From positions 5,642,001 to 5,706,000 of the forward strand of contig JAYWIR010000005.1 in assembly GCA_036172245.1 (NCBI GenBank): a stretch of DNA of 64,000 bases, given 5' to 3'. Below the pieces are notes generated by a model, which saw nothing but the letters and a program-made list of their open reading frames with translations, searched no databases and was not told where the DNA came from. The stretch comes from Raillietiella orientalis (Eukaryota). Both the position numbers and the translations under genes were made by a program. This document shows, in pieces, positions 16,600 to 61,018 of this stretch (its first letter is position 1; each line of letters begins with the position of its first letter).

Positions 16600-17600
16600 T
16601 TCCGAGCGTTCCTGGACTCATTTCTGCGGATCGATTTCCTTGGAGTGATTTCCACTGCCCCCTTGGAAGCCGAAGGACTCCGAAGCACGCTCGCAAGGCA
16701 GGTCTGAGAAACGCATGGGGATGAGTGAGCCGCCGCCACGCGTTCGAGACTCACCTCCCGCTGGCTTTTCAAGGCTTAGAGGAAATAGCCTCCAAGAACT
16801 GCTTCGCTTTGCCAATTGAGCGTAATCAGTGGCGTCTTTACAGTGGTCATCGCTTTGGTTCCTTTTGCTGGATGCTTCCAAAGAACTTGCCATGAGATGA
16901 AAGCACCACTCGCCTGCAACCCACGAAGGACACCAGCAGCACTCATTTATGATTGAATCCTCCGTGTCGGTGGTTTGGAATAAGACAGGGGAGAGGATCA
17001 GCAAGCAGGAGGAAATCTGAGAAGCTGCCGCGCCGTCGTCTTCCTGTGGGGTTCCTAACGAGCCCGATCCGCTCGCGCTGCAGATGTTTCTTCGAGCGCG
17101 CGAGGAGCGTGGGTCACGTGAACTCGCAGACTCCGCGGCCGCGCACGGAAGCAGCTGATCGCGCGAATGAATGGAAACGGCGGCTCCGCTGCCACGCTGC
17201 TTTTACGCGCGTCCCCACCGTACACGCGTACGCAAGCCCCCCGTACGGCAGTAGCAGACAGAGATCCTCCGGCAAAGTCAGCTTTGGGGAGGCGTCTGGA
17301 AAGCGAGGAGGCCGCGAAAGTACGCGGTTGCGGCCACTGCCGCCACCACTCGACGTTGCCTCTGCAGCATCCGCTGCTGATCTTTGGCTTCAATGATCGT
17401 CTCCTAGACTGCATGCCTTGCCGTTCCAAGGCCACTTTGCGCTTTCTCCTTTTTGCAAGCGTCTCCCTAAGCCGCCGTTCGACGAGGAATCTTCTCGTCC
17501 CTTCGAAGAAAAGCTCTCGCTTCCTCCTCAGGTGCTCGCTTCCCCAGCGAGATGGCACCCGCCGCTTCGGGCGGTCCGAGAGAATTTCCACCTTCGGAGG
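16600..17600 (-). mobile_element. L1/Tx1-like ORF1 (gag-like) remnant
   Basis: RM-like SLRVHVTHAPRALEETSAARA followed by eroded zinc knuckles (WCFH...DDHCKD..YA). Confidence 0.35.
16989..17379 (+). repeat. Left arm of 391-bp inverted repeat (partner 18231-18621)
   Basis: Direct reverse-complement match, near-identical core with mismatches concentrated in the outer ~45 bp; the ORF track shows the same peptide on opposite strands. Confidence 0.97.
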
Positions 17601-18230: not shown

Positions 18231-18621
18231 CAGCAGCGGATGCTGCTGAGGCAACGTCGAGTGGTGGCGGCAGTGGCCGCAACCGCGTACTTTCGCGGCC
18301 TCCTCGCTTTCCAGACGCCTCCCCAAAGCTGACTTTGCCGGAGGATCTCTGTCTGCTACTGCCGTACGGGGGGCTTGCGTACGCGTGTACGGTGGGGACG
18401 CGCGTAAAAGCAGCGTGGCAGCGGAGCCGCCGTTTCCATTCATTCGCGCGATCAGCTGCTTCCGTGCGCGGCCGCGGAGTCTGCGAGTTCACGTGACCCA
18501 CGCTCCTCGCGCGCTCGAAGAAACATCTGCAGCGCGAGCGGATCGGGCTCGTTAGGAACTCCACAGGAAGACGACGGCGCTGCAGCTTCCTAGACCTCCT
18601 CCTGAGTGCTGATCCTCTCCC
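18231..18621 (-). repeat. Right arm of 391-bp inverted repeat (partner 16989-17379)
   Basis: Reverse complement of 16989-17379; 851-bp spacer. Confidence 0.97.
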
Positions 18622-25799: not shown

Positions 25800-27141
25800 T
25801 CCTAATGCTCCGCCGCGGATCGTGGCTTAGCTCGACTCTATACCACCAAGGTGGCGGAGTCAGTGCTCTTCGAGGTGCTCCCGATTTCTGTTGCCCACCC
25901 GCTCCAGGAGAGCACGCTGGTTCCTCGGCGACGAAGGGTGCTGGGCTCCCTCGGCATCTGCGGAAAGGGGGAGAGAGTCATGGCGCGGGGACTCGCTTCA
26001 TTGAATCCTCTCGCGGGTCGCCTTCCCCACTGTCCGGAACAGTAAACCCAATTGGACTTCCAATCCCTGGCGTCTCTGTGCTCCAATGCTCGGAGACTCC
26101 CGATTCCTCCACCAAGAAGTGAACCGAGGACGGTGATGGCAATGGTGCGCGATCTTCCGATGACGTAGGTCAGTGGTCAATCCGGTCAGTGGTGCTAGGA
26201 GAGGAACTTCTGCCCACAGTCCTGCCTCCCGGCAACTATTCTTTCCGTCTTGCTTGCAGCCGAGCTCCATCCCTACGGTTCGGTGCTATCTGCGGTTCTT
26301 TCTCAAGAAACACCGGGGCGAACCCTTCCGAAAAAGCTTTCACCTCAACAATGGGACACCCTTTTTTTTACTCTTGAACACCTCCTTTGCACCATTCCTT
26401 TGCCAATAACAACGAAGCCAGAGGCTCAGAGCCTCCCCTCCGGTGGCAACAGATGGCGACAACCTTCCTGCACTGGGGTTTCCCGTGCAGCCAAAGGACA
26501 GGGACACCGGACGAGGGGCAACGTGCCCCCGGACGGCTCCAGGTGCGGAGGCGATCGAAGCTCACCCGCACCCACTTCTGCACTGCGAGTTCTTCCTCAG
26601 AGGATGGCGGCGCATGGCGGCGTCTTTGCCGCATCCGGGAGACTCCTTCGGGCAGCCTTATGCAGCGTTTCTTCTACGCCGCATGGACTCTCGGCCGTGG
26701 CCAGCTGGCGGTGCTGCGCTGCATCCGTGCAGCAGCCTCCAGTAGCCATGCCGTGCAGCACCGGCAGCACCGGACGGCGGGCGTTCGCCGAGCCCCGTTC
26801 ACGCTGGCGAGAGGACCCCTCCCCTTCCCCAAATCGACGGGGACGCTGTCCGGATCGCGGGAAGGCCATAGGAAAGAGCGGAACGGAAACCGGCGATCCT
26901 TCCTTGCCTTTCCCTCCCCATTTCCTGCAGACCAGCAACGTTCATCTCCTCGACTTATCGATTTCTTTTTCCTCCTCCTCCTACCCCTCCTTTTCCCGCT
27001 TTCTCCCTTAACTCTTCCGTGCCGAGCGCACGTTTTGCTTTCCGACCTGCGTGTCGACGTTCCTCGAATCGTGCCCCCAGGCACGTAAACGTATGTTTTT
27101 ATTCGCTTTGAATAAACGTCCCGGAGCGACCGGGTCGAAAA
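25800..27141 (+). mobile_element. L1/Tx1-like LINE 3' portion
   Basis: FLHWGFPC plus eroded CCHC (SRCGG...HPLLHC); clear nucleotide homology to 52370-52812 and 55020-55730; ends AATAAA (27111-27116), then hairpin cccgg-agcga-ccggg, then aaaa. Confidence 0.75.
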
Positions 27142-40300: not shown

Positions 40301-41272
40301 TGAAGGGGAATTTGGGAGGGAAGATAAGGACAGTGGCGTGAACATGCAACTGAGATGCGTGATCTTGAGAGGAGGACAGTGTTAAGAAGTGGAACTCTCA
40401 TAGCAGATGGCATGAGCATGCTGGAGAATTGTAGACTGGCTCTCCATTTGGCATAGAAGAGTGGTAACAAGAAGGAGGCAGATAGGAAGATCCCTGAAAG
40501 ATGAAATGAACATCGCAAATTTAAAGGGGCTTACCATTTTCATTGGAAGGATACCAGTGGATGAAGATTCTCACTTCAGGCGGATGCTGCCCAGAGTGGG
40601 CTGGTCGTTCCCTCCTCGAATCAGGTGTTTCGCAATGAGGGATGCCCATGCTACCCTTCACTGAATTGCAAGGATACTCGAGACGATGGTGTGAAGTCCC
40701 CTGATGCGATTCCTGGTACTTATCTCTCAAACAGACATCTGACCTCGCCCGAACGCTTGCCTTCACAGTACGACTCCGGAGGGTTTGGTGCCCCATGGCG
40801 AGAAGAAAAAAGGCCTATTCCATCTTCCGTATATCACTCTGGACGTAGAATCCCCCCCCCCCATTCTTATCCACCGGGACTCCTGGAGGTCTCGTTCACC
40901 GTTGAGGGCGGCGTCCCTCTTCTGGACAAATCCTGAACTTCCGGTTCCAGAGAGGCTAACGGCTTGTAGCAGATGCCTTTGACAAATTTGTCAGTCCTTT
41001 CTGATGGATGGGGAAGACTTCTTCATCCCTCTAATGTGCATGCATACGAGTTCTCCCCTCCGCTTCACCCACGCGTGGCTGCAGACCCAGGAATCAGTGA
41101 GGGTAGATGCTGCGAGAGATCTGGATGTTGGAGAGTCTGTCTCCCTTTTGGTTTGTTCTTCCTCACGTTCCCTAAGAAATCCATCCTCCCGCAGCATCGC
41201 ATCGAATCCACAGGTCTTAAGATAGTGACGATCCAACAAAGACCGCTTCCCCTACCGAATTTTTCCTTCCAG

Positions 41273-41550
41273 TTTTTTTTTTTTTTTTTTTCGGATTTTT
41301 TCTGGGGGTCCGCTAAGTACCTCAAGAACCGTTGCGTGCCTCTTGGCGCACGTGGCTCTTTAACACTGTTCCACGCCATTTGTGGAGGGTGCATGTAATT
41401 CTTCAAGACAGAGGGCACCCCGGGAGAGGGATCCGCCCTATGAATCCAGGAAGGGCTCGGAGTCCGTTCCTCTCACGCCTGGGGAGAGATCTCCTCCTGG
41501 AAAGGGAGGGATCGCGCTTCCACCGTACTGACTTCAGAAGAGAAGTGGAT
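41273..41550 (-). mobile_element. 5'-truncated copy of the structured SINE-like element with poly(A) tail
   Basis: Reverse complement matches about 59980-60253; the poly(T) run at 41273-41290 is the tail. Confidence 0.85.
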
Positions 41551-41599
41551 TGCCAGTATCCAGGGGATTTTCCTTTGGCTGTTCCTCTTTTTCAAAGAC

Positions 41600-43939: not shown

Positions 43940-45880
43940 ATGATCAAAGACTGCTGACGTTTTAGTTCTGGGGAAGGAAGGCGGAAAGCGCTGATGAATG
44001 CCTCTAAGAGGAGACGAGCAGTCCTCTTCGAAATCACGAACGAAGAGCTGCACAACCGTCTTCTATCCAGCATGCTCGTCTCCGTGATCCATCTGCTTCG
44101 TTTCGTTTTCTTTCCTGGACAGCAAGGAGCGAATGGACTCACGCAGCCCAGGTCAACCCCGAAGATATCATTTTGATGATATCTGTCTTCAAGACGGCAG
44201 TGGGAGCGCAACCTACGAATGATGTGATTACGAGGAGGGTAAGGAGCAGCAGTCCTGACATTCAGACTGTGTTCGTGCACGGCAGACGTAAAGGTAGATT
44301 TCTAGAAAAAATACAGAGGCAGTGTTGGCATGGCAGCACGCGGCTGAAGAAGCGTAGAAGTCAGCGATCGTTAGTGTTGGTACGAGGTTGATTATGGATA
44401 CGAAAGAGCATGGAAAGCCATGTAAATATTGATTCCCTGGTGTATGGAAATAATGATATGGGATTAGCTTAAGGTTGTAGGGATTTTAAGGGGTTAGTAC
44501 TGTGAGTACTGGGATATAAGAACGAAAATGTTAAGTGGTCATAGAAATGGGAATCATGGCTGTGCACTGGCTGGGACTTGGTTGAGGTTAAAAAGCTTGC
44601 TGAGTCTAGAAATAATAATCTTGTGAAGGTAAGGATGCTTTTTCCTGCTGGACATGAGTCTAGGAGAGGACGAATGCATACGCGTGATTTCGATGATGCC
44701 CAGACTTTGTGAGGGGGAAGTGCTTGGCTGTGCTTGTTAGATGGAACTAACACATCCACAATGATGATTATTGTCTACCTGTTAGTACTACTGGATGCTA
44801 AAATTGATGGTATTTCTACTGTTGGCGATGACAGGGATGAGTGAGGAGCAGCATGTTGGAGTGTAGCATTTTTGTAGATGATGAGGTGATTGGATAGGGA
44901 GCAGTATTCGGGAAGGGATGGGATGGTTGATGAGGCAGGGCACCGCTCGCTGTTGATGTTTGCAGTGTTGATGTTGCCCGCGTCGGAGGCCTTGTGGTTT
45001 AGGCTTCCGCGTGTGGCACCGTGCGTCGCGGGTTCGAATACTTCGGCAGAAACTCTGACGCCATTGAGTCGTCGAGTTCCGAGTTTCGCCTGCAATGGCG
45101 CTGGCTGTCCTACTCATTCGGGCGTGGCACTGGCGGTAGATTAAGCCGGAGGCCCCCGATGAAGGTCAGAACAATGGGAGTCGACCTTCGGGTACTCCCA
45201 GGAATCAAGGAGTAGGGAGTTCCCCCTCCGGTCGTGCAACGGAGAGCGGACTCCCCTCACCGGGGGTCCCTCCGAGTCGTCGCCTCTTCACAGAGTGCAC
45301 AAGGAAGCAAGCGAGAGCGATTCCCTGCGGGAAGCTGCAGCTCCCCTTCTGAATTTCGGAAGCCTTCCTTCGGGGTTCTCTTCAGAGGAGTGAACAGGAG
45401 CGGTTCCCTTGCTGGTTCCCTCCGGGGAGGAAATTCCTAGAAGCGGATCCTTTCCGGGTTCCCTTCGGAGAAGTTGAAATGGAGAGGACCACCCCACATT
45501 AAGGGGGTGTCCCTCCGGAGACAATGAGGAAGGAGATTCCCTTCGGGGTTCCCCATCGGGGACAACCAGGGTGGGAGGTGCGATCCCTCCCGTACAGGGG
45601 GATCCCTCCCCAAGCGTGAGAGGAACGGACTCCGAGCCCTTCCTGGATTCATAGGGCGGACCCCTATCCCGGGGTGCCTCCTATCCTGAAGAATCAGTGT
45701 GATTCTGCAGGGTAGGATAAGGATGGGTGGTGGTTTGATGTTTGGAGTTGTGAGGGTGATTTGAAGTGTTATGGTGATATGTGGATTTATCTTTCGAAAC
45801 GAGAACAAATGCTGCGATGGTGATCGTGATGGGATAAGATTATTCGAGTAGGGTTTCTATGTTTATGTACATAGCTGTCA
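43940..45880 (-). mobile_element. Decayed APE-type LINE with a C/A-rich sense strand, interrupted by the SINE-like element
   Basis: NINTANINS (APE start), IIIIVDVLVP, HFYDHLTF (SDH-like), then FAP..KKTKRSRWIT; the same G/T-rich plus-strand texture lies on both sides of 44976-45694. Confidence 0.55.
44976..45694 (+). mobile_element. tRNA-derived SINE-like element with hairpin-array body (3'-truncated copy)
   Basis: Pol III A-box-like ggccttgtggtttagg (44988-45003) and B-box ggttcgaatac (45031-45041); colinear homology to 59403-60131. Confidence 0.8.
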
Positions 45881-52260: not shown

Positions 52261-52369
52261 GCATGACAAAAAAAAAAAAAAACCATGTGCTCTCACTTTC
52301 GTTTTTAGCGAACCAAAGCCACAGTTCGCTCCCTTGTCATTGGGGAATCAGGATCCCCCGACTCCCGGG

Positions 52370-53153
52370 CGTGGGTCAGCTGCCGTTGCTGCGCTGCATC
52401 CGCGCAGCAGCCTCCAGTCGCCACGCCGTGCAGCGACGGCAGCACCGGACGGCGGGCGTTCGCCGAGTCCCGTTCAAGCTGGCGAGGGGACCCCTTCCCT
52501 TCCCCCTTTCCGTCCCGAAATCGAGGAGGACGCTGCCCGCATCGCGGGAAGGACGTAGGAGAGACGCGGGACGGAAACCGGCGATCCTTCCTTGCCTTTC
52601 CCTCCCCCATTTCCTGCAGACCAGCAACGTTCATCTCCCCCCATCGAGTGTACATCGACTTATCGATTTCTTTTTCCTCCTACCCCTCCTTTTGCCGCTT
52701 AACTCCCTTAACCCTTCCGTGCCGAGCGCGAGTTTTGCTTTCCGACCTGCGCGTCCACGTTCCTCGAATCGCACCTCCAGGTCACGTGATCGCATGTATA
52801 TGCGCTTTGAATGGACTTCGCGTAGAGACCAGGTTTGCAGTAACGGCGTTGCCAGACGGACCGTGGAAACGGTGGAACTTACGGAACATTCTTCCTTTGC
52901 ATCTCTTTATGGGATCCTGAATCTTTCGAACCAATCCTGATCTCCGGGAGCCGAAACTTTCTGTGGTGGACGCATGCTGGCAAGAATCCTAAAGGAGCGT
53001 TTTGAGGGGCACGGGAAACGAACCAGCGGGAACAAGGCTTTTGCAAAGTCTGTGTGGGCAGATGGAAAGGAGCAAAGGCTGCACGAGGGAGTAGCCGACT
53101 GACCCCATCGACGATGAATGCGGACGACGTCTTGGAGCCACAGGGAAGAAAAT
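52370..53153 (+). repeat. Left arm of 784-bp inverted duplication (LINE 3' end plus ~340 bp flank); partner 54684-55467
   Basis: Essentially identical reverse complement; the few mismatches I found lie in the outer ~60 bp. Confidence 0.97.
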
Positions 53154-54683: not shown

Positions 54684-55467
54684 ATTTTCTTCCCTGTGGC
54701 TCCAAGACGTCGTCCGCATTCATCGTCGATGGGGTCAGTCGGCTACTCCCTCGTGCAGCCTTTGCTCCTTTCCATCTGCCCACACAGACTTTGCAAAAGC
54801 CTTGTTCCCGCTGGTTCGTTTCCCGTGCCCCTCAAAACGCTCCTTTAGGATTCTTGCCAGCATGCGTCCACCACAGAAAGTTTCGGCTCCCGGAGATCAG
54901 GATTGGTTCGAAAGATTCAGGATCCCATAAAGAGATGCAAAGGAAGAATGTTCCGTAAGTTCCACCGTTTCCACGGTCCGTCTGGCAACGCCGTTACTGC
55001 AAACCTGGTCTCTACGCGAAGTCCATTCAAAGCGCATATACATGCGATCACGTGACCTGGAGGTGCGATTCGAGGAACGTGGACGCGCAGGTCGGAAAGC
55101 AAAACTCGCGCTCGGCACGGAAGGGTTAAGGGAGTTAAGCGGCAAAAGGAGGGGTAGGAGGAAAAAGAAATCGATAAGTCGATGTACACTCGATGGGGGG
55201 AGATGAACGTTGCTGGTCTGCAGGAAATGGGGGAGGGAAAGGCAAGGAAGGATCGCCGGTTTCCGTCCCGCGTCTCTCCTACGTCCTTCCCGCGATGCGG
55301 GCAGCGTCCTCCTCGATTTCGGGACGGAAAGGGGGAAGGGAAGGGGTCCCCTCGCCAGCTTGAACGGGACTCGGCGAACGCCCGCCGTCCGGTGCTGCCG
55401 TCGCTGCACGGCATGGCGACTGGAGGCTGCTGCGCGGATGCAGCGCAGCACCGCCAGCTGACCCACG
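54684..55467 (-). repeat. Right arm of 784-bp inverted duplication; partner 52370-53153
   Basis: Reverse complement of 52370-53153; 1530-bp spacer. Confidence 0.97.
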
Positions 55468-56120
55468 GCCGAGAGTCCATGCGGAGTAGAAGAAACGCTG
55501 CAGAAGGCTGCCCGGGGGAGTGTCCCGGATGCGGCAAAGTCTCCGCCACGCGTTGCCATTCGCCGGGGAGGAACTCTCAGTTTAGAAGAAGGCGCGTGTG
55601 CGATCGCCCCCCCCACCTGGCGCGGTTCGGGGACGCGCCGCCTCTCGTTCGGTGCCTCTGTCCCCGTCGACGCTGGCTGCACGGGAAACCCCAGTTCAGG
55701 AAGAGTGTCGCCACCGTCTGTTGTCACTGGACGGAAGACACTGAACCGTCCGGGAGGAAGGTGGTAATCGCTAATTCCGTCCACCAGAGGAGTCCTTGGG
55801 TGCGAACTCTTAGTGACGGGACGTCCAAAACTTTTCGCAGCATTCAGTCGCTTCTCGGTTTCTTGACTCCTGCTATGCAGCAAGAAATCTCCCACCTAGA
55901 CGGTTGGCTATTGTGATCACGTTCCCATGGAGAGGGCAGCGTTGTGGCTAAGGAGGTCGCGGAGGAGAGTTCTCACTCCTTGGAATACCGTCCGCACTTG
56001 CTGCAGGGATACTATTCCAAGACATTGGACAGGACAAAGCACTTGCAGGGTTATCTGAAGCACTCGCGCACCTATGCGTTCTCAGCGTCCTGCCGCCAAG
56101 CGTTGTTATTTTTCGACGAA
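55020..56120 (-). mobile_element. L1/Tx1-like LINE 3' portion (longer copy containing the right inverted arm)
   Basis: Nucleotide homology to 26440-27113 and the AVLRCIRAA motif; the poly(A) signal is eroded (gaatgga instead of gaataaa). Confidence 0.75.
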
Positions 56121-59120: not shown

Positions 59121-59402
59121 TTCCACATGGAAACTCTTCCACGTAGCCGTTTTCACACCCAATAAGAAGAGCAATCTGTACGTGCCTCATTGTACTTGTC
59201 TTTAGAAGACTGCTTGATCTGGACAGAGGAATACATAGCAACAGAGAATACCTCGTGAACTGTGGTTTCCCTTGACTTTGTAACTTGTGATTTCTCCTCC
59301 GTCTCTACCAAGCAATGAAAACATTTTGCAAATGTCTCCAGCTGTCAGCTATTGCCCACTGAACATCCGAAAAATCCAACGACTCCCCCCCACCCAAACA
59401 AG

Positions 59403-60320
59403 GCCCGCGTAGGAGGCCTTGTGGCACCGTGCGTCGCGGGTTCGAATACTTCTGCAGAAACTCTGACCCCACTGCGTCGTCGAGTTCCGAGTTTCTCCTG
59501 CAAGATGGAGCTGGTTGGCCGAGACATTCGGGCGTGGCACCGGCGGTGGATTAAGCCGGAGGCCCCCGATGAAGGCCGGAACAATGGGAGTCGACCTTCG
59601 GGTCCTCCCAGGAATCAAGGAGTGGGGAGTTCTCCCTCCTGTCGTGCAACGGAGAGCGGACTCCCCTCACCAGGGGTCCCTCCAAGTTGTCGCCTCTTCA
59701 CAGAGTGTGCACAAGGAAGCAAGCGAGAGTGATTCCCCTGTGGGAAGCTGCAGCGCCCCTTCTGAGTTTCGGAAGCGTCCCTTCGGGTTCTCTTCAGAGG
59801 AGTGAATAAAGGAGCGGTTCCCTTGCGGGTTCCCTCCGGAGAAGAAATTCCTAGAAGCGGATCCTTTCCGGGTTCCCTTCGGAGAAGTTGAAATGAAGTT
59901 GAAATGGAGAGGACAGCCCCTCCCCATTGGGGTGGGGGGTGTCCCTCCGGAGAGAATGAGGAAGGAGATTCCCTTCGGGGTTCCCCTTCGGAGACAACCA
60001 GGGTGGAAGGTTCGATCCCTCCCGTCCGGGGGGGATCCCTCCTCATGCGTGAGAGGAACGGACTCCGAGCCCTTCCTGGATTCATAGGGCGGACCCACCC
60101 CCATACCGGGGTGCCCCCTATCCTGAAGAATTACACGCCCCCCTGCGGGTTGCCGCGGGCGGAGGGGCGTGGAAACAAAACAGTGTGTTAATGTTTAAAA
60201 AGAGCCACGTGCGCCGCGAGGCACGCGACCGGCTCTGAGGTACTTAGCGAACCAAAAACAAAGAAAACCCTTAAAAACAAAAAGCTGAAAGAAAAACAGC
60301 ATACAGAAGAAAAAAGAAGA
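59403..60320 (+). mobile_element. Near full-length tRNA-derived SINE-like element with hairpin array and A-rich tail
   Basis: B-box ggttcgaatac present; A-box damaged by a 19-bp deletion relative to the 45-kb copy; tandem hairpins at 59585-59995; terminal stem agagcc/ggctct; A-rich tail after 60253. Confidence 0.85.
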
Positions 60321-60439
60321 ACCTAAGGATTTCCACCCAAACATTAGAAAAATAGAAACACGCAGCAGATATCTTCAAGAAAAGGTGAGGTTTTCTTGCA
60401 TTCCTTAGGGATGCGAACCGTCATACTTGTAAAACAGAT

Positions 60440-61018
60440 ATCGCATCCTCCCATTCGGACGAGGCGGAGGAGTGATAGCAGTTCACGGGGATGCCCTCCT
60501 TCTACCAGGCGTCCTGCGCGCCCGGGGCTGAGGACCACCGAGGACGAGGGCGGGAGGACGCCCCGGTGGACCGAGTGCGTCCAGTTGCACGAGCCGCGAG
60601 TGGTCCCGACCCCACCCCGGACACTCTGGACCGGCTCTTCAACGGTCTGAGCGTGGCGCTCCTGAGTTTCGTGGAGGACGCCAAGCTGCTGCTGCTGCAG
60701 AGGCTGTTTGCCAGGGCGTCGTTCGCGCTGGAGGTCACCAAGGCGGTGGACGACGACAGGCCGGTGAACGGCCCCGAGCTGCGGAAGATCAGCAGCTGCG
60801 TCCTGGAGCTCACGACGTACACGAGCGCCCTGGAGGCCTGCAGGTTCCCGGAGAGGTTCGTGGTCGACGAGGAGGCGGAGAGCCTGGTGGCCATGATGCC
60901 CATGGTGGCGGGCACGGAGACGGAGTCGGAGGACGAGGCAGGCTGAGACGAGTACCCGGAAATCATCCGCCGGGATCCGTGCAAGAAGAGCCGACTCAAG
61001 AGGGGGTCATCCCGGTGA
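60440..61018 (+). pseudogene. GC3-rich intronless ORF of unknown product (core ORF 60491-60946)
   Basis: Very strong G/C third-position bias. The same biased frame continues past TGA 60944-60946 (DEYPEIIRRDPCKKSRLK) and upstream of tandem stops at 60473-60478. Confidence 0.6.

Follow-up and report, generated by a model that had tools for sequence, protein, structure and literature searches.

Eel UnaL2 and UnaSINE1 provide an example of a stringent LINE/SINE pair. In pairs of this stringent type, the LINE protein recognises a stem-loop in the 3' tail (PMC4176376). SINEs are defined in the SINEBase paper by three parts, a head, a body and a tail, and the 175 families held in SINEBase in 2012 have lengths, measured without the tail, of between 75 and 662 nt with a mean of 253 nt (PMC3531059). 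The body of the SINE CHRS is described there as quasi-oligomeric, with a degenerate motif of ~20 nt repeated more than 10 times (PMC3531059).

We have analysed an element that lies in a 64-kb stretch of DNA (referred to here as the window) and whose parts can be compared with each of these systems. Without its tail it extends from 59403 to 60253, that is, 851 nt, or ~870 nt when a 19-nt segment of the head is included. This places it beyond any family in the length range that the SINEBase paper gives for 2012 and agrees with the original prediction that it is longer than typical tRNA SINEs (PMC3531059). A literature search with words from the sequence of the element (13–17-mers) and with phrases on long SINEs found no description of it. 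We put at roughly 0.7 the probability that the element belongs to a family of non-autonomous non-LTR (SINE-like) retroposons in which the row of hairpins in the body came from tandem duplication and not from selected pairing. The features on which this reading is based are collected in Table 1.

Table 1 Positions of the element, its copies and their parts in the window, with local fold tests against 100 dinucleotide shuffles
Feature	Position	Strand	Basis or remark
Copy B, full element (932 nt)	59401–60332	+	BLASTN, alignment, flank repeats
Left target-site duplication of copy B, CCACCCAAACA	59390–59400	+	exact 11-mer
Right target-site duplication of copy B, CCACCCAAACA	60333–60343	+	same exact 11-mer as left
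Copy A	44976–45694	+	full-form head; without last ~200 nt and tail
Fold-back at copy A 3' break	45679–45717	+	18-nt inverted repeat, 89% complementary, 3-nt spacer
Copy C	41246–41592	−	3' domain and poly(A)20; homology 41273–41526
5' head	59403–59449	+	A-box-like word 59414–59424, B-box-like word GGTTCGAATAC 59439–59449
GC-rich body, upstream part	59450–59771	+	local hairpins, e.g. 59586–59609 with UUCG loop
Quasi-oligomeric array, five hairpin units	59772–59994	+	direct repeats, unit alignment, unit folds
U0	59772–59795	+	GAAG/CTTC
U1	59811–59837	+	array unit
U2	59854–59880	+	array unit
11-nt tandem duplication, GAAGTTGAAAT x2	59884–59905	+	private to copy B among window copies
U3	59906–59948	+	array unit
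U4	59961–59989	+	array unit
Conserved 3' domain, common to copy C	60001–60253	+	fold z, alifold, homology
3'-domain hairpins	60009–60071, 60072–60128, 60134–60171, 60183–60252	+	folding
46-nt invariant core	60047–60092	+	identical in all three copies (alignment columns 668–713)
A-rich degenerate tail of copy B	60254–60332	+	A-run positions
Fold test, array, copy B	59765–60000		sense z −1.6 (5/100 shuffles as stable), antisense z −1.2
Fold test, array, copy A	45355–45568		sense z −0.9 (16/100 shuffles as stable), antisense z −0.1
Fold test, whole body, copy B	59470–60000		sense z −2.3, antisense z −2.2
Fold test, whole body, copy A	45060–45568		sense z −1.9, antisense z −2.3

Copies, borders and dispersal of the element

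BLASTN of the query 59380–60340 against the 64-kb window located three copies, termed A, B and C here, and together with the alignment it bears out the positions that had been claimed for them. Copies A and B are 88.9% identical over 713 nt (45012–45694 against 59420–60131), a further piece of the copy A head (44976–44997) matches 59403–59424, and a defined 5' end is common to both copies. The head of copy A contains 19 further bases (44998–45016), flanked by TGTGG repeats, that are absent from copy B; because a public contig described below also has this segment, as copy A does, it is copy B that carries a 19-nt deletion. Copy C matches copy B in two blocks, with 83.9% identity over 143 nt (41387–41524 on the minus strand against 60002–60142) and 87.5% over 56 nt (41307–41361 against 60199–60253). 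Its homology with copy B begins at 60002, and the common part is the 3' ~250 nt only; the 67 nt that precede this homology are unrelated to copies A and B (their local alignment scores 19, where the null mean is 18). Copy C may be a truncated copy of another element with the same tail, perhaps the partner LINE.

The borders of the element, 59401–60332, are given by an exact direct repeat of 11 bp that brackets copy B and is the longest word common to its two flanks. By our estimate, a match of an 11-mer between the flanks has a probability of ~7e-4 of arising by chance in the stretches searched. The tail of copy B is A-rich: six of the eight A4+ runs of the element start within it and the other two start in the 3' domain, at 60177 and 60197. 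On the + strand, copy C includes a run of T20, equivalent to poly(A) when the copy is read in its own direction, as originally noted; copy C is bracketed by a candidate 9-bp target-site duplication (CAAAGACCG at 41237 and 41593). A target-site duplication and a simple or A-rich tail, the marks of retroposition in a SINE, are thus seen in copy B, and copy C has the poly(A) run with its candidate duplication. Copy A has no tail, which is unusual for a copy primed from its 3' end and counts against the SINE-like reading. A candidate 10-bp target-site duplication around copy A was rejected, because the flanks around it are G/T-rich and of low complexity and because it does not abut the ends of the element.

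Copy A breaks off at 45694 and is followed by an inverted copy of its own last 18 nt, as though a template switch or a snap-back had taken place where the copy breaks off. Hairpins can, on this evidence, arise by mutation in this family. Two other classes of mobile element were considered and rejected: a solo LTR, as there is no TG..CA end and the 11-bp target-site duplication and the A-rich tail are present, and a Helitron, as the target-site duplication and the tail are present.

The family is not confined to the window. In X2, a run of public DNA, 98 contigs fall on 59369–60373 with a likeness of 80–99+% (5 of them at 99+%, 10 at 95–99%, 33 at 90–95% and 50 below 90%), and in the 500 bases on either side of the element there is one 34-nt piece from this run and otherwise nothing. 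Because the contigs lie almost only on the element, they identify a dispersed family moved by reverse transcription. A second public run, X1, gave a single contig of 955 nt over 59421–60258, which is almost exactly the span of the element. In this contig, the 30 nt at 59642–59673 are swapped for 116 other letters, so that the family includes a variant with a longer body. X1 and X2 were the two sequencing runs listed as containing sequence of this kind, each with a small share, and no RNA run was among those listed. Exact-pattern scans gave no match for two 24-mers in metagenome contigs or for one 24-mer in prokaryote genome contigs and viral contigs.

Five ORFs of at least 107 aa overlap copy B (59319–60194, both strands), and Pfam found no family in any of them; no coding capacity was found, and the element is in this respect non-autonomous, as SINEs are. 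With copies of common origin that comprise three in the window, 98 contigs from X2 and one from X1, the element is genuine and dispersed, a SINE-like retroposon that is unusually long. The original prediction had called it a mobile non-coding RNA, and the mobile and non-coding part of this stands on the target-site duplication, the A-rich tail, the 3'-only copy and the diverged copies in other data, whereas the selected structure that was attributed to it is not supported. Three copies in one window, two of them within 4 kb of each other (at 41.3 and 45.0 kb), might also be expected of a segmental duplication or of fragments of a satellite, with no mobility involved. We find this hardly credible, since BLASTN in the window shows no relation among the flanks of the three copies, copy B has its exact 11-bp target-site duplication and A-rich tail, and the 98 X2 contigs match the element and not its flanks.

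The 5' head

The head contains one word resembling an A-box and one resembling a B-box. The B-box consensus is GGTTCGANNCC, from which GGTTCGAATAC differs by one mismatch; in copy A, which has the full form of the head, the B-box-like word is found at +56 to +66. At +12 to +22 of this copy is the A-box-like word, which agrees with seven of the nine specified positions of the A-box consensus. Distances of +12 and +56 resemble the geometry of tRNA genes. Words with one mismatch to the B-box occur in the window at chance frequency (13 found, 17 expected), and from this motif frequency we estimate the probability of such a word falling by chance in the relevant 13-nt span, on the right strand, as ~1e-3. 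On the positions of these motifs a Pol III head is plausible, and we infer Pol III transcription from the box-like words.

A tRNA was not found in the head by ARAGORN at its default or 90% thresholds; at 80% the head of copy A is called, but so are 35 places in the 64-kb window. Copies A and B gave no match to tRNA, 5S or 7SL in Rfam at E ≤ 10, and the best sub-threshold matches were to miRNA and snoRNA models at chance level. By both ARAGORN and Rfam, then, the head lacks the recognisable cloverleaf of a tRNA gene or pseudogene. What remains of the tRNA-derived A/B-box head first proposed is the pair of box-like words at tRNA-like distances; the tRNA itself is not recognised. An origin from rRNA, 7SL, 5S RNA or a ribozyme was rejected, there being no Rfam match at E ≤ 10. 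None of the copies has a T4+ run in its sense strand. This is compatible with Pol III transcription but is explained by composition, because the body is also without A4+ runs.

The lack of a tRNA, 5S or 7SL match would suit a retroposon derived neither from a tRNA nor from another Pol III gene, such as a deletion derivative of a LINE (5' UTR plus 3' UTR) or a retroposed Pol II lncRNA. So would the length of 851 nt, greater than that of the SINEs whose range is given for SINEBase 2012 (PMC3531059), and copy C, where an unrelated 5' sequence precedes the 3' ~250 nt, as for a LINE 3' UTR. Such an origin deserves to be kept in mind but is unlikely, given the common defined 5' end of copies A and B, the match of the box words to tRNA geometry with the low chance of the B-box placement, and a sense strand free of T4+ runs.

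The hairpin array

The pattern G[G/A]AG...CT[C/T]C-GGAGA is present in the four units at 59811, 59854, 59906 and 59961, with GGAG/CTCC alternating with GAAG/CTTC, just as was first described. We have found a fifth unit beyond these, U0, at 59772–59795, which is of the GAAG/CTTC type. GGAGA trails most of the units. The cUUCGg loops reported earlier are also borne out: CTTCGG occurs five times against 0.4 expected, a number reached by one of 1000 shuffles.

The hairpin units are diverged tandem copies of one unit of 42–43 nt. The array contains three families of direct repeats (D1–D3; 35, 23 and 12 nt) with spacings of 42, 43 and 43 nt, and an alignment of eight unit sequences, four from copy B and four from copy A, has a mean column identity of 72%. 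Each unit is in turn made of two adjoining copies of a ~12-nt word similar to GGTTCCCTTCGG. Pairing in the unit hairpin is between the CCC of the first word and the GGG where the two words meet, and between the leading GG and the CC of the second word. The U–U mismatches that are constant across the units follow from this construction, because a direct repeat of GGTTCC yields them. The make-up of the repeats differs between copies A and B by the remodelling of U3 and by the 11-nt duplication, of which one GAAGTTGAAAT unit is missing in copy A, in the X1 contig and in two X2 contigs.

Folding stability and covariation

We compared local folding, with a span of up to 60 nt, with that of 100 dinucleotide shuffles (Table 1). 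The stability of the array is at the level of the shuffles in both copies, so that this many hairpins is a chance outcome of the composition. Folded alone, single units have energies of −5 to −33 kcal/mol and form bulged hairpins of 8–18 bp. With only 0–1 G–U pairs per unit hairpin, and with the two strands folding about equally, nothing in the units points to a constraint on RNA of the sense strand. The fold of the whole element is better in sense (z of −4.5) than in antisense (z of −2.4), calculated from 20 shuffles only, and this difference speaks against the reading that we prefer.

Copies A and B differ by 52 substitutions, of which 28 are transitions and 24 are transversions, and their alignment has 50 gapped columns. 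If the structure of copy B is used, 26 pairs are changed, of which 5 are kept and 21 broken, with none compensatory; with the structure taken from copy A, 8 of 25 are kept. Neutral change would, by our estimate, keep about a quarter to a third of the changed pairs. Unit by unit, U2 is the same in both copies, the core of U3 is remodelled, and in U0, U1 and U4 there are substitutions that break pairs. The difference "agggg vs ggggg", which had been taken to preserve pairing, gains or loses one pair and does not compensate.

In the comparison between units, 84% of cells pair, three pairs and six cells are altered on both sides, and the covariation score is reached by none of 500 shuffles, although the count of two-sided pairs is reached by 44 of 500. 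This covariation is confined to the basal stem, whose arms are purine and pyrimidine, so that by our reckoning three of the four combinations pair by chance; when the partners are slid by −1, 77% are still paired. The rows of copies A and B for one unit are not independent in this statistic. The strict alternation of the basal stem over five units fits the duplication of a two-unit block, which is a single event. We therefore consider the unit-level covariation to be weak evidence for selected pairing. Significant covariation supporting the helices was not found with the two to three copies available, a number that gives low power, and the claim of a covarying array is for this reason unsupported rather than disproved.

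The original prediction had gone further and regarded the element as a mobile structured RNA whose tandem hairpins were selected as multivalent sites for protein binding or packaging. Every unit can indeed form its bulged hairpin, the GGAG/CTCC and GAAG/CTTC types alternate over all five, the covariation score stands clear of the shuffles, CTTCGG is enriched, and U3 retains its basal stem around a core that is different and also forms a hairpin. These properties are set against chance-level stability (z of −1.6 in copy B and −0.9 in copy A), few G–U pairs with near-equal folding of the two strands, a stem composition that pairs readily when displaced, an alternation explicable by one block duplication, non-independent rows and U–U mismatches expected from a direct repeat. 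The units are tandem duplicates, no change between copies is compensatory, and pairs are broken as neutral decay predicts. A selected array of this kind is improbable, and selection for RNA pairing is not needed to explain the hairpins.

A related proposal combines a new, Pol III-driven SINE class of ~870 nt with an evolving array of bulged, UUCG-capped hairpins that would serve as repeated docking sites for the RNA-binding protein of the partner LINE or for a host factor; within it, the GGAGA/GAAG linkers, rich in purines, might provide a further binding motif that is single-stranded. If true, it would mean that a retroposon RNA recruits its machinery multivalently. We give this proposal very little weight. 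Tandem duplication of a hairpin-containing unit remains the preferred explanation for the array.

The 3' domain

The 3' domain is the most constrained part of the element. Over 60001–60260, its sense fold has a z of −4.3 and none of 100 shuffles is as stable, against an antisense z of −2.3. RNAalifold found no compensatory pair in the domain. In the hairpin at 60072–60128, all five one-sided changes keep pairing by way of G–U on the sense strand, and in the first hairpin of the domain the changed pairs are mostly broken; over the whole domain, we count 6 changed pairs that are kept against 7 that are broken or gapped. The changes fit a module kept by source elements for the reverse transcriptase of a LINE, although they are suggestive only. 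The 3' domain is probably the recognition module for the partner LINE. No ORF for a reverse transcriptase or LINE was found by Pfam in the 64-kb window among ORFs of at least 107 aa.

The hairpin at 60134–60171 is strong (−28.9 kcal/mol) in copy B and the X1 contig, and in its inner part it has 63% similarity to the 35-nt array unit; the equivalent in copy C is shorter and has a different sequence. A T-arm-like hairpin that had been proposed at ~60003–60023 depends on T60012, which is private to copy B. Copies A and C, the X1 contig and four X2 contigs have G at 60012, and the T-arm was rejected as coincidental.

Surroundings of the element

The window looks like a gene-poor eukaryotic stretch. 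Its GC content is ~50%, and CpG is not depleted (observed/expected 0.86). ARAGORN found no tRNA genes in it, and Rfam gave no matches at the gathering score over the whole window; the Rfam check called for by the original prediction thus returned no family at the gathering score and, for copies A and B, none that is relevant at E ≤ 10. Pfam found nothing above its cut-off in 166 stop-to-stop ORFs of at least 107 aa, with a single sub-threshold match (DUF6216, E = 0.0084).

An ORF of 151 codons on the + strand (60491–60946, ATG to TGA) starts 158 nt downstream of the end of copy B. Its codon periodicity exceeds that of the rest of the window by a wide margin (chi-square 69 in the stop-to-stop frame), its third positions are GC-rich, and it is the only clearly coding stretch of the window; it had no homologue in the protein collection searched and no usable Atlas neighbour. 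The window also contains an inverted repeat of 794 bp with arms 99.4% identical and ~1.5 kb apart (52360–53153 and 54684–55477), together with a third copy that is 82–84% related (26426–27135). This may be a foldback or long-TIR element, and ORFs inside it gave no Pfam match. Another inverted repeat, of 391 bp, has arms 97.7% identical and ~850 bp apart (16989–17379 and 18231–18621).

Discussion

In the reading that we prefer, the RNA of the element would be copied by the reverse transcriptase of a partner LINE, primed at a nicked target, and this target-primed copying would leave the 11-bp target-site duplication and the A-rich tail. Four modules make up the element. The first is a 5' head of ~70 nt, with A- and B-box-like words at tRNA-like distances, that would act as a Pol III promoter. 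The second is a GC-rich body of ~530 nt, the 3' half of which is a quasi-oligomer of the 42–43-nt self-complementary unit. The third, a well-folding 3' domain of ~250 nt common to copy C, is the probable recognition part for the reverse transcriptase, and the fourth is the degenerate A-rich tail. The similar bulged hairpins would have come from tandem duplication of one hairpin-containing unit, which happens to be self-complementary. We infer both the LINE partner and its recognition through the 3' domain. In looking for the partner, this conserved domain is the better target.

If the family is undescribed, the range of sizes known for SINE-like elements becomes wider. The element is a clear case in which the body of a retroposon has grown because a self-complementary unit was duplicated in tandem. 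It also carries a caution, in that differences between hairpin units which appear compensatory can come from duplicated GC-rich repeats with purine and pyrimidine arms, with no selection on RNA.

Among described systems, the element can be compared with tRNA-SINEs that have a LINE-derived 3' region. Like them, it does not code for protein, is dispersed, has a target-site duplication and an A-rich tail, follows the order of head, body, 3' region and tail, has box-like words at tRNA-like positions, and has a 3' module that recurs in another element. It differs from tRNA-SINEs as characterised in the SINEBase paper in its length of 851 nt and in a head that neither ARAGORN nor Rfam recognises as a tRNA (PMC3531059). 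With CHRS-type SINEs, as that paper describes them, it shares a body built from a short degenerate motif in tandem, the number of repeats varying between copies; its unit, however, is 42–43 nt long, made of two ~12-nt words, self-complementary and able to fold, and the likeness is one of description (PMC3531059). Stringent LINE/SINE pairs offer a parallel to its 3' end, where a conserved and stably folding domain lies directly before the tail, although in this element the conserved domain extends over ~250 nt in place of a single short stem-loop (PMC4176376).
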